Origin: Escherichia coli
GTDB lineage: Bacteria; Pseudomonadota; Gammaproteobacteria; Enterobacterales; Enterobacteriaceae
Length of the DNA: 64,000 bases
NCBI RefSeq assembly: GCF_044324875.1
Contig: NZ_CP172185.1
Reading direction: 5' to 3' (one strand)
A program made the position numbers and the translations under genes. Under the pieces are notes generated by a model that worked only from the letters and a program-made list of their open reading frames with translations, searched no databases and was not told the DNA's origin. Of the stretch, positions 23,605 to 31,126 are shown in pieces. Numbering within the stretch: position 1 is the first letter of the stretch; every line of letters begins with the position of its first letter.

Positions 23605-23682
23605 GGCCTGATAAGACGCGTGATGCGTCGTATCAGGCATCGTTCACCATTGCCGGATGCGGCGTTAACGCCTTATCCGGCC
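23605..23682. repeat. REP/BIME element (two REP palindromic units) between ypfH and ypfN
   Basis: gtaggcctgataagacgcg...gcgtcgtatcaggcat and tgccggatgcggcgttaacgccttatccggcc, the classic E. coli REP (PU) signatures. Confidence 0.75.
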
Positions 23683-25943: not shown

Positions 25944-28900
25944 TTATTCCGGGCGCGGCTTCAGCGGGAAGCGGCGGCGCACCAGCACAAAGAACAGCGG
26001 CACGAAGTAAATAGCCAGAATAGTGGCCGAAATCATCCCGCCCATTACGCCAGTACCCACCGCATGCTGACCACCGGAACCGGCACCCGTGCTGGTTGCC
26101 ATTGGCAATACGCCGAAGATAAATGCCAGCGAGGTCATCAGAATCGGGCGTAAACGCTGACGGCAGGCGTGGAGCGTCGCTTCAAACAGGTCGTGGCCTT
26201 TTTGGTTCATCTCGTTAGCAAATTCGACGATCAGGATGGCGTTTTTCGCCGATAAACCAATGACCGTTAACAGCCCCACCTGGAAGTAAACGTCGTTTTC
26301 CAGCCCGCGCATCCAGGTTGCCAGCAGCGCGCCGATAACCCCCAGCGGCACGACCAGCATTACCGAGAACGGCACCGACCAGCTTTCATACAACGCAGCC
26401 AGACACAGGAATACCACCAGCAAGGAAATGGCGTACAGCGCCGGAGCCTGCGCGCCGGAAAGTCGCTCCTGATACGACATCGCCGTCCACTCCAGACCAA
26501 AGCCGTTTGGCAACTGCTTCACTAACGATTCCATAATATCCATCGCCGTACCGGTACTGACCCCCGGTGCGGCTTCTCCGACAATCTCTACTGCAGAATA
26601 ACCGTTATAGCGTTCCAGACGCGGCGAGCCTGTCTCCCAGCGTGATGTCGCGAAAGCAGAGAAGGGCACCATGCCGCCATCTTTATTTCGGACATACCAG
26701 AGATTGATGTCATCTGGCAGCATGCGATATGGCGCAGCTGCCTGCACATAGACTTTCTTCACGCGACCGCGATCCATAAAGTCATTCACATAGCTCGAAC
26801 CCCAGGCGGTTTGCAGTGTGTCGTTAATATCGTCGATAGCAACGCCCAGCGCCTGAGCTTTACGCTGGTCGATATCAATCTGCAACTGCGGACTGTCGTC
26901 GAGGCCGTTATGGCGCACACGGGTTAGCTCCGGGTTTTCCGCTGCCAGCGCCAGCAACTGGTTTCGTGCTGCCATCAGCGCATCGTGACCCGCTCCAGCG
27001 TGGTCCTGCAACTCCATATCAAAACCCGCAGAACTGCCAAGACCGCTAATTGCTGGCGGGCTGCTGGCGATAACGCGAGCTTCTTTAATCTTGTTAAACG
27101 CCTTCGTTGCACGTTCGATAATGGCAAACGAGGTGCCGGTCTTACTGTCGCGTTCGCTCCAGTCTTTCAGGCGGATAAACATTCGCGCCACGTTTTGCCC
27201 GTTACCCCCAGGGCCAGAACCAACGGTGGCAAACACCGACATGATGTTGTCTTTTTCATGGGTGAAGTAGTATTTCTCGATTTGCTCAACGACTTTCAGG
27301 GTCTGTTGTTGGGTTGAACCGCTGGGCAACTGTACCGAGGTAGTAAACATGCCCCGGTCTTCCAGTGGCAAGAACGACGTCGGCAAACGCAGGAACAGGA
27401 ACACCATGCCGCCAAGCAGCAGGACATAAATCACAATCCAGCGCAGGCTACGGTGGAGAATTTTCGCCACCCCTTTTTCGTAGCGTTCGGCGTTGCGGTT
27501 AAACATCTGGTTAAACCAGGCAAAAAAGCCTTTTTGCCCGTGATGCTCACCCTTTTTCAGTGGCTTAAGTAGCGTGGCACACAGAGCCGGAGTGAGGATC
27601 ATCGCTACCAGTACTGACAGCACCATCGCCGCAACAATGGTAATAGAGAACTGGCGATAGATGGCACCGGTGGTGCCGCCGAAGAAGGCCATTGGTACAA
27701 ATACCGCCGAAAGCACCATCGCAATCCCGACCAGTGCCCCCTGGATCTGCCCCATCGATTTACGTGTGGCTTCGCGAGGAGTGAGTCCTTCCTCACTCAT
27801 AATACGTTCGACGTTTTCCACCACCACGATGGCATCATCCACCAGCAGACCGATCGCCAGCACCATCGCGAACATGGTTAAGGTGTTGACGCTGTAACCG
27901 AAGGCATAAAGTACGGAGAAGGTTCCCATCAACACCACCGGCACGGCGATAGTGGGTATCAGCGTGGCGCGGAAGTTTTGCAGGAACAGATACATAACGA
28001 GGAAAACCAGAGCGATAGCTTCCAGCAGCGTTTTCACCACGTCTTCAATGGAGGCTTTAACAAACGAGGTGGTTTCATACGCCACCTTGTATTCCAGTCC
28101 ATGCGGGAAATACTGCGCCAGCTCGTCAAGACGATTGAGCACCAGCTCCGCTGTCGCCATTTCGTTCGCGCCGGAGGCCAGTTTTACCCCCAACCCGGAG
28201 GCTGGCTTACCATTGAAGCGGCTAAGATAATCGTATTTCTCCGCCCCCATTTCGACGGTGGCGACATCGCCCAGCCTTACCTCTGAGCCGTCCTGATTCA
28301 CCCGCAAGGTGATATCGCGGAACTGTTCTGGTGTTTGCAGCAGTGACTGGGCGTTAATGGTGGCGTTGAGCGCCTGCTTATCGACGGAAGGCGTACCACC
28401 AAGTTGCCCAACCGCAATCTGCGCGTTCTGTGACTCAATGGCATCAGTGACATCTTTAGCCGTCATCTGGAAACTGTTGAGTTTCGCCGGGTCCAGCCAG
28501 ATACGCATGGAATATTGCGAACCATAGGCATCGATATCCCCAACGCCATTCACGCGGCTTAACGGATCCTGAATATTACTGGCAACGTAATCGGCAATAT
28601 CCTGTTTATCCATCGAACCATCGGTAGAGACGAAGGCAATGGTCAGAATGTTGGTATCGCCGGTTTTACGCACCGTCACGCCCTGATTTTGCACTGCCTG
28701 CGGTAACTTTCGCATGGCAGATTGCAGCTGGTTTTGTACTTGCTGCACGGCTTCGTCCGGATCGGTGCCTGCTTTAAAACTTAAAGTGACAGATGCCTGA
28801 CCGGTGCCACTGCTCTGAGATGACATATACATCAGATTATCGAGACCGGTCATATTTTGCTCGATAACCTGGGTCACGGTGTTTTCCAGCGTCTGGGCCG

Positions 28901-29057
28901 ATGCGCCGGGATAGTTAGCGGTCACTCGCACATTCGGTGGCGCGAGATCGGGGTATTGTTCAACGGGCAATGAAAAAATCGCCAGGGTACCTGTCAGACA
29001 CAACAGGATTGCCAGCACCCAGGCAAAAATGGGGCGATCAATAAAGAAATTCGCCAT
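25944..29057 (-). CDS. acrD: RND-family aminoglycoside/multidrug efflux pump AcrD
   Basis: 1037 aa, 12-TM RND transporter with two large periplasmic loops. Confidence 0.96.
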
Positions 29058-29127
29058 TAAAAGAGGACCTCGTGTTTCTGCGTATCGTTGTAGGCTTGAC
29101 TTGCTTCACTGTAGCGGCAAGGTACGA

Positions 29128-29145
29128 GCCAATCGTGGAGAAAAA
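29128..29145 (-). promoter_or_regulatory. Candidate BaeR binding box in the acrD promoter
   Basis: Minus strand reads TTTTTCTCCACGATTGGC, one mismatch to the BaeR box TTTTTCTCCATDATTGGC; 71-88 bp upstream of acrD ATG. Confidence 0.55.
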
Positions 29146-29220
29146 AAGGAGTTAATGTAAATTATCATGCCCTTTTATACTGAACTTTAAGGGCCAGTAT
29201 TCTTTGGTCAGTCGGAGGCA

Positions 29221-30921
29221 TTACATCAGCTGACTTTCCTCACCCTCCGCGGAGCGAAAGCTAATACTCACTAACGTGCCGCCGCCGGAAGGTTGTGAAA
29301 AAGTCAGCGTCCCACCCAGCCGTTCCGCGCGCTCGCGCATGATATTCAGACCATAATGACCTTCGGGTTCTTTCGGTTCACCGATGCCAATCCCGTTATC
29401 ACGGATATAAACCGTGTGATTGCCGTCCGGCGCAGTGACGCAGCTAACGGCGATTTCGCTGGCGTTGGCGTGCTTCATCGCATTCAGCACCGCTTCGCGA
29501 ATAATTTGCAACAAATGCACCTGCATTTGCGCATCCAGCGCCAGGGTTGGCAGACGGCAGTCGAGGGTCAGTTTAGCGCTGGTTTGATTTTGTAACGTAT
29601 CCAGCATTTCACGTAGCGCAGAGGGGAGATCTGCCTGCTGCAGCGTCAGGCGGAAAGTAGTTAACAGCTCGCGTAACTGCCGATAAGCATCATTCAACGC
29701 TTGGGAAAAATCGGCCATGATACTTTGTGCGGTGGCGTTATCTTCCGGTATCGAACGCTTCAGTAACGTCAACTGGATACGTAAGTAAGAAAGTACCTGA
29801 GCCAGCGAGTCGTGCAATTCGCGGGCGATGGTCGCACGTTCTTCCATCAACAATAACTGCTGAAAATGCTTCTGCGCCTGATTAAAGTACAAACCGCGTC
29901 CCAGCATCGACGAAACACTGTTAAGCAGCGGTTCTGATGATGAAACGTGACTATTTTGCCAGTGCAGTTCGCCGTAAACCGTCTCTTGCATTGTCACCGG
30001 TAAAATCTGCATCGGCAATTCCGGGTTTGGTTGCCCTTCGCTAATCCGCCAGTTTTCACCGACATTTAACTCCAGATATTCAGCCGCTTCGTTGTCGCGC
30101 ACAATCTGCAAAATATGGCGGAAACAATGCACATCAATCTGGCTGGTGTTCAGCGCCTGCGAACACTGATACAACACCTCCAGGCGACGCTTGGCCTCGT
30201 GGAGATCGCGGGTCTTTTCTTCTACTGACGCCTCCAGCGAACGGTACAATTTATGCAGCTCGCTCGACATCTGGTTAAAGGTTTTGGCAAGCAGGCCAAG
30301 CTCATTCGGCAGGCTGGTATCCAGCGGTGGCGAGTCGAACTGCCCGTGTTCAATACGCTGACTGGCGGTAACCAGCTGATTCAGCGGGGCAACCACCTGA
30401 TGGCGTATGCGGCGCAAAGTAAAAAAGACCAGCGTGAAAATACCGATGCCGCCAGCCAGGGAAATTGCCACCACCAGCAGCATTTTGCGTTCAGCGTAGT
30501 GCTGTAAAGCCAGCACGAACAGGTCTATCTGATTAACATAATTATTAATATTGGCCTGATACCACGGCAAGTCGCCCTTGCTGAGCCGATTATTCATCTC
30601 CAGCCAGTTGGCATTCAGATGCGCATAGCGGGTTTTTACTGCCTCTGGCACATACCAGACGTTGAGATTGGTTAATACCGGTGAATGCAGTGCCTGCTGA
30701 AATAACTGGCGATGTGCATTGAGTTGTGGACTGCCACTTTGCAAGTCGTAGCCCAGGCGGTAACTCTGCATACGCAGCGATCCGGCAATATTGATAGCCT
30801 CAGCATCGCGCAAACTGCTCGCCAGAGTTAGCAGAGCGATACCCGTGGAAAGAATCGACAGCAGGACAATGTAAAAAAAGGCCCGGGCCAGACTGGCCGA
30901 GACGGGTCGTTTAACAATCAC
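29221..30921 (-). CDS. narQ: Nitrate/nitrite sensor histidine kinase NarQ
   Basis: 566 aa from GTG at 30921 (MIVKRPVSASLARAF...); H-box ELHDSLAQ; HAMP and HATPase regions. Confidence 0.93.
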   Translation of the reverse strand: MIVKRPVSASLARAFFYIVLLSILSTGIALLTLASSLRDAEAINIAGSLRMQSYRLGYDLQSGSPQLNAHRQLFQQALHSPVLTNLNVWYVPEAVKTRYAHLNANWLEMNNRLSKGDLPWYQANINNYVNQIDLFVLALQHYAERKMLLVVAISLAGGIGIFTLVFFTLRRIRHQVVAPLNQLVTASQRIEHGQFDSPPLDTSLPNELGLLAKTFNQMSSELHKLYRSLEASVEEKTRDLHEAKRRLEVLYQCSQALNTSQIDVHCFRHILQIVRDNEAAEYLELNVGENWRISEGQPNPELPMQILPVTMQETVYGELHWQNSHVSSSEPLLNSVSSMLGRGLYFNQAQKHFQQLLLMEERATIARELHDSLAQVLSYLRIQLTLLKRSIPEDNATAQSIMADFSQALNDAYRQLRELLTTFRLTLQQADLPSALREMLDTLQNQTSAKLTLDCRLPTLALDAQMQVHLLQIIREAVLNAMKHANASEIAVSCVTAPDGNHTVYIRDNGIGIGEPKEPEGHYGLNIMRERAERLGGTLTFSQPSGGGTLVSISFRSAEGEESQLM

Positions 30922-31126
30922 ACGCGTCTTCTCCACAAAAAATCATTAATGTTCCAGTTCGCTGAAACGCAATTTAGTCAGTGATGGGATTATTTGATCT
31001 GCCACAGTTTATAGCGAAATAGTTACTTATTCTGGGCACATGAACATTGCCGATTCCCCTGTAAGTCGGGTAATAACAACACTCATATAAAGAATAAGGT
31101 TTTTACAACCAAAAAAGAAGGTCGTT

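Follow-up and report, generated by a model that had tools for sequence, protein, structure and literature searches.

The narQ-acrD intergenic region of the Escherichia coli DNA analysed here (a single stretch of 64,000 nucleotides, hereafter the window) contains a BaeR box that very probably forms the core of the operator through which BaeR acts on the acrD promoter. This box, TTTTTCTCCACGATTGGC, is 18 nt long, lies on the minus strand at 29128-29145, agrees with the published consensus at 17 of 18 positions and is the same in K-12. It is a textbook BaeR site and, being identical to that of K-12, was already known. Our confidence is not higher mainly because a ChIP-exo experiment under ethanol gave no acrD peak, a single condition set against several lines of evidence. 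The added value of the analysis is a phylogenetic picture of the operator, which comprises the constrained bases, their fixed phasing to the -10 hexamer, a TTTACA element and a change in the distal repeat.

The acrD gene encodes an RND multidrug and aminoglycoside efflux permease of 1037 aa and occupies 25944-29057 on the minus strand, as given by its open reading frame and by the annotation of identical genomes. Its product is identical to K-12 AcrD at 1036 of 1037 residues over the full length (99.9%), which identifies it as the K-12 orthologue. The upstream neighbour of acrD is narQ, encoding a nitrate/nitrite sensor kinase, at 29221-30921 on the minus strand in the annotation of 100%-identical genomes and of K-12. 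The list of open reading frames extends narQ to a GTG at 30936 (571 aa); the genome annotations use the ATG of the 29221-30921 interval (566 aa). Between the two genes lie 163 bp (29058-29220, minus strand) that contain the acrD promoter and coincide exactly with the interval of the original prediction. A terminator consensus scan of 28900-29400 found none, and there is no terminator-like hairpin between narQ and acrD. A narQ terminator or structured RNA element was considered and rejected, the narQ-proximal intergenic fold having a z-score of -0.70. An Rfam search likewise gave no match in the narQ-acrD intergenic region. The only Rfam match in the window is naRNA4 (CssrE, nucleoid-associated noncoding RNA) at 23605-23682 on the minus strand, with 85.7 bits, between ypfH and ypfN.

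On the plus strand the sequence of 29128-29145 is gccaatcgtggagaaaaa, and the box is its reverse complement. Relative to acrD the box has the sense orientation; 70 nt separate its 3' end from the ATG downstream. The BaeR motif 5'-TTTTTCTCCATDATTGGC-3' is credited to Nishino et al. 2005 in PMC3799227, and PMC3915751 cites TTTTTCTCCATDATTGGC as the published E. coli BaeR motif. Against this consensus the acrD box has a single mismatch, at position 11, with C for T, and a scan of the 64-kb window with up to 3 mismatches returned the acrD box as the sole match. At this tolerance a match was also found in 15 of 100 dinucleotide-preserving shuffles, and the intergenic DNA is AT-rich, both of which would fit a fortuitous match in T-rich intergenic DNA that has no regulatory role. 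When at most 1 mismatch was allowed, however, none of the 100 shuffles gave a match. The claim that a sequence one position away from the BaeR box lies at this site is therefore borne out, at 17 of 18 positions and with no shuffle its equal.

The name "near-consensus" given to the box has to be read with more care. In K-12 MG1655 the spy box is TTTTTCTCCATAATTGGC, with 0 mismatches to the consensus, and the mdtA box is TTTTTCTCCCTTATTGGC, with 1 mismatch. The published consensus is exactly what majority rule over the three K-12 boxes (spy, mdtA, acrD) yields, and its degenerate D is A in spy, T in mdtA and G in acrD. The acrD box thus appears, on this agreement, to be among the sequences from which the consensus was drawn. 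The 17 of 18 match stands, but the label looks partly circular, given that majority rule over these boxes reproduces the consensus.

The promoter was also compared among orthologues of acrD. One genome per species was scanned with the first 330 residues of AcrD, which yielded 80 loci from 80 species at 80-99% identity, ranging from Escherichia, Citrobacter, Salmonella, Klebsiella and Enterobacter to Erwinia and Pantoea. The AcrB paralogue has roughly 65% identity, well below the range of these AcrD-orthologue loci. A conserved module was found in all 80 of them, and an alignment anchored on CCAC is free of gaps over ~60 bp. In this ungapped alignment the module covers 37 bp, GATAATTTACATTAACTCCTTTTTTTCTCCACGATTG, at 29130-29166 on the minus strand of the window. 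Its core columns hold 1.5-2.0 bits of information, compared with 0.0-0.4 bits in the flanks, and a position weight matrix (PWM) of the module has its best match in the window at 29130-29166 (z = 9.0). The aligned consensus reads gaTaAtTTACAyTaTCTcCTt..TTTCTCCACGwTTg, followed by ~15 variable bases and cTAnAGTg. With an in-register site in 80 of 80 species, and with experiments available on the identical K-12 sequence, the conservation data effectively refute chance resemblance, to which we assign a negligible probability.

Three elements stand out in the module. The proximal repeat, TCTCCAC (29135-29141, minus strand), has each of its positions kept in 77-80 of the 80 species. The distal repeat (29148-29152, minus strand), 11 bp upstream of the proximal one, is ACTCC in E. 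coli and TCTCC in 79 of the 80 other species. In these 79 species, two TCTCC half-sites in direct orientation begin at columns -18 and -7 of the alignment, about one helical turn (11 bp) from each other, as in an OmpR/PhoB-type operator. The E. coli difference is confined to position 29152, where E. coli has A and 79 of 80 others have T; among the other species only Escherichia sp. MOD1-EC7003 (L004) has the A as well, and it is fixed in ~98% of complete E. coli genomes. The third element, TTTACA (29155-29160, minus strand), lies outside the published BaeR consensus, and 5 of its 6 positions are invariant in all 80 species.

The constrained bases do not coincide with the published box. The GGC at the 3' end of the 18-mer (29128-29130, minus strand) is poorly kept among acrD orthologues, at 61, 30 and 46 of 80 for its three positions, and conservation is strong in the ~20 bp upstream of the 18-mer. 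In acrD orthologues, the published 18-nt box appears to be offset from the element under constraint. The C at 29135, which counts as the mismatch to the consensus, is kept in 79 of 80 orthologues; judged by the alignment, acrD promoters carry it as a constant feature, and it is not a sign of site decay.

The module is present in 80 of 80 loci, although narQ is found upstream in only 46 of the 80, and it therefore belongs to acrD. Within the upstream 2.5 kb of these loci (L004-L083), narQ adjoins acrD in ~30 species, is separated from it by an extra 0.6-1.2 kb in ~16 and is absent in 34. The promoter module is ancestral to the whole group, but the adjacency of narQ and acrD is not. The distance from the module to the ATG is 69-81 nt in most Enterobacteriaceae, and 114-293 nt in the Erwinia/Pantoea/Winslowiella/Chimaeribacter group and a few other loci. 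The loci with the far module are L045, L059, L072-L074, L076, L077 and L079-L083, at positions about 2200-2390. The greater distance implies that the leaders of these loci are long, or that DNA has been inserted downstream of the promoter. The acrD of Erwinia amylovora is the orthologous gene, and the loci of the Erwinia group have the same module, TTTACA...TCTyC...TTTCTCCACGATT. Judged from these related species, the 18-mer marked by the authors of the Erwinia amylovora study (PMC3915751) appears to be shifted by a few bases from the conserved register.

Analysis of the promoter itself suggests that it depends on an activator. A sigma-70 consensus scan of 28900-29400 found no promoter with -35 and -10 hexamers at a spacing of 16-18 bp, that is, no promoter of the constitutive sigma-70 type, and the -35 position reads ACGATT, with 2 of 6 matches. 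We read the lack of a sigma-70 consensus promoter as activator dependence and not as the absence of a promoter. The predicted -10 hexamer is TACAGT (29108-29113, minus strand), in which T, A, A and T do not vary in any of the 80 species and which keeps an ungapped, fixed distance from the box. A predicted transcription start follows 7 nt after the -10, at 29100-29102 (near 29101, minus strand); its position is read from the -10 hexamer only, and it would give acrD a leader of ~44 nt. This predicted start gives the proximal repeat a position of about -40 to -34; the distal repeat (-51 to -47) and then TTTACA (-59 to -54) lie farther upstream. A literature search gave no usable mapped acrD start site or footprint. 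An alternative promoter, with TTTACA as the -35 and CACGAT 17 bp downstream as the -10, was rejected; its -10 has only 2-3 of 6 matches and overlaps the activator site.

BaeR is a regulator of the OmpR/PhoB family, and activators of this family such as PhoB bind direct repeats that are one helical turn apart and cover a missing -35. The acrD promoter resembles the pho box in having tandem direct repeats with ~11-bp periodicity over the -35 position, a recognisable -10 and no -35. It differs from the pho box in the sequence of the repeats and in the regulator, and a contact of BaeR with sigma-70 region 4 would follow by analogy only. For the acrD promoter, the start site, the assignment of the -10 and a geometry of tandem dimers are predictions.

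Comparison with the two other K-12 boxes places the acrD element in the same class. The spy, mdtA and acrD boxes share a TTTTTCTCC...ATTGGC core in sense orientation, upstream of a hexamer that resembles TAnAnT. On the acrD strand the box is 14 bp upstream of TACAGT, the same distance as that from the spy box to TACACT, in contrast to 12 bp to TATCAT in mdtA. The boxes also differ in that acrD has CCACG where spy has CCATA and mdtA CCCTT, and the invariant upstream TTTACA is found in acrD alone. The repeats stand 11 bp apart in acrD and 22 bp apart in spy; in mdtA, where as in acrD a further CTCC is found one helical turn upstream of the box, the spacing is 10 bp. A PWM was built from non-Escherichia acrD promoters only, with no use of the published consensus. 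The top matches of its 14-column proximal-repeat portion in the 4-kb spy and 3-kb mdtA loci of K-12 fall inside the BaeR boxes, and its second-best match in the mdtA locus is the repeat 10 bp upstream of the BaeR box. Footprint and PWM together support the view that the conserved acrD element is a site under selection, and that the boxes of spy and mdtA are of its kind.

The promoter of the window is that of E. coli at large. The 148 bp nearest acrD (from 29205 to the ATG), in which the box is included, align without a difference to K-12 MG1655, and all six substitutions relative to MG1655 in the aligned region fall within the narQ stop codon and the adjacent 55 bp (29166-29223). The window is chromosomal DNA of E. 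coli: of 5426 complete E. coli genomes, 5424 contain the region as queried with 363 bp, with annotated narQ and acrD, and several strains are 100% identical. For the 71-bp core (29100-29170), which takes in the box and its flanks, at least 5323 of the 5426 genomes (~98%) show 100% identity. The baeSR genes lie outside the 64-kb window; baeR was found in 5422 of the 5426 complete genomes, and from this near-universality the same genome very likely carries baeSR as well. The original prediction had placed acrD under BaeSR "in this strain". Control by BaeSR is supported, but nothing about it is specific to the strain, since the 71-bp core is the same in ~98% of genomes.

The published evidence on this control comes largely from K-12, where acrD, mdtA (mdtABCD-baeSR) and spy make up the core BaeSR regulon (PMC3160322, PMC3915751). 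An acrD(-274..+11)-lux fusion in a baeS deletion with an empty vector gave no response, and it answered indole once a plasmid supplied baeS-mYFP and baeR (PMC4780735). Tungstate induces acrD in MG1655, but neither a baeS deletion nor the kinase-site mutant BaeS N364A shows this induction (PMC13209484). With a promoter identical to that of K-12, these indole and tungstate data (PMC4780735, PMC13209484) uphold the assignment of acrD to the BaeSR envelope stress response. Direct regulation of acrD by phosphorylated BaeR is cited in PMC10052836, and direct binding of BaeR at acrD in E. coli and Salmonella is cited by later papers (PMC3915751, PMC10052836). For Erwinia amylovora, a 246-bp fragment of the acrD promoter was shifted by BaeR in a gel shift (PMC3915751). 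The experiments proposed with the original prediction have largely been done already in the literature.

One data set points the other way. BaeR ChIP-exo in MG1655 with 5% ethanol gave peaks at spy and mdtA and none upstream of acrD; acrD also lies outside the BaeR iModulon, and the authors describe it as indirectly regulated (bioRxiv 10.1101/2020.06.23.168344). In addition, the BaeS phosphorylation-site mutant H250A cuts the acrD promoter's response only partly (PMC4780735), which indicates that BaeS-BaeR is not the sole input. It could be, then, that the box is conserved and that acrD in E. coli nevertheless responds to BaeSR mostly indirectly, with negligible BaeR occupancy and with another regulator or envelope-stress cross-talk in between. 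The T-to-A change of E. coli in the distal repeat, at a position kept in 79 of 80 species, could weaken the site and would agree with this. The ChIP-exo result, however, was obtained under one condition with one tagged construct. The in vitro binding cited for E. coli and Salmonella in later papers, together with the gel shift of the Erwinia orthologue (PMC3915751), speaks against a mostly indirect response, as does the loss of acrD induction in the baeS deletion (PMC13209484, PMC4780735). The proximal motif, moreover, is the same as in spy and mdtA and is under strong purifying selection. We consider a mostly indirect response unlikely.

Possibly, although we hold this reading only tentatively, the functional operator is a 37-bp composite (29130-29166) in which TTTACA and the distal TCTCC are as important as the proximal repeat and the 3' GGC is dispensable. 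The A at 29152 might then weaken BaeR occupancy in E. coli relative to other enterobacteria and to spy and mdtA. If true, this would help to explain the missing acrD ChIP-exo peak in MG1655 and a reliance on a second input such as CpxR.

The TTTACA element raises the further question of whether the module is mainly the operator of another OmpR-family regulator (CpxR or OmpR) that reads TTTACA, with BaeR in a secondary role. On the opposite strand TTTACA is TGTAAA, which contains the CpxR half-site GTAAA, and we take it to resemble the OmpR half-site TTTACATT as well. Its invariance in 80 of 80 species, outside the BaeR consensus, would fit a second regulator, and CpxR has been reported as a co-regulator of acrD and mdtA (PMC3160322, PMC10052836). 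TTTACA is not, however, part of a GTAAA-N5-GTAAA tandem, and a search for this CpxR tandem in 81 promoters found no conserved site or shared position. The best candidate in E. coli, TTAAAGTTCAGTATA, with 8 of 10 matches, lies away from TTTACA and is not conserved. What acrD shares with spy and mdtA, furthermore, is the TCTCC repeats and not TTTACA, and for tungstate in Salmonella BaeR, not CpxR, has been described as the primary regulator (PMC3160322). A module that serves mainly CpxR or OmpR is accordingly very improbable.

With BaeR as the regulator, the following mechanism can be proposed. As the literature shows, envelope stress from indole, tungstate, zinc or copper, or some beta-lactams activates the sensor kinase BaeS, and BaeS in turn phosphorylates BaeR. 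Phosphorylated BaeR, a winged-helix protein, would then bind head-to-tail to the TCTCC-type repeats at 29148-29152 and 29135-29141, 11 bp apart; the repeats are seen in the sequence, and tandem binding to them is suggested by the analogy with PhoB. Occupying about -51 to -34, the BaeR sites would cover the position of the absent -35, and sigma-70 RNA polymerase may be recruited to TACAGT (29108-29113). Transcription of acrD would follow. AcrD acts together with AcrA and TolC, and the three export aminoglycosides, some beta-lactams, bile salts, SDS and novobiocin. CpxR may provide a secondary input to acrD, through a site that the scan did not locate.

Control of AcrD by BaeSR is clinically relevant, but the link is established, and the window adds no strain-specific twist to it. 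The new details are minor: the unconserved 3' GGC, the conserved "mismatch" C, the invariant TTTACA and the T-to-A change in the distal repeat of the E. coli lineage. The operator picture could guide mutagenesis or better motif models for the prediction of the BaeR regulon. On the clinical side, a baeS deletion mutant exposed to temocillin overexpressed acrD and mdtABC and had a raised temocillin MIC, and temocillin-resistant mutants obtained by serial passage carried baeS mutations (PMC10904727). Such baeS mutations, with raised acrD/mdtABC expression and temocillin MIC, are known from E. coli and have likewise been reported for Enterobacter (PMC10904727).
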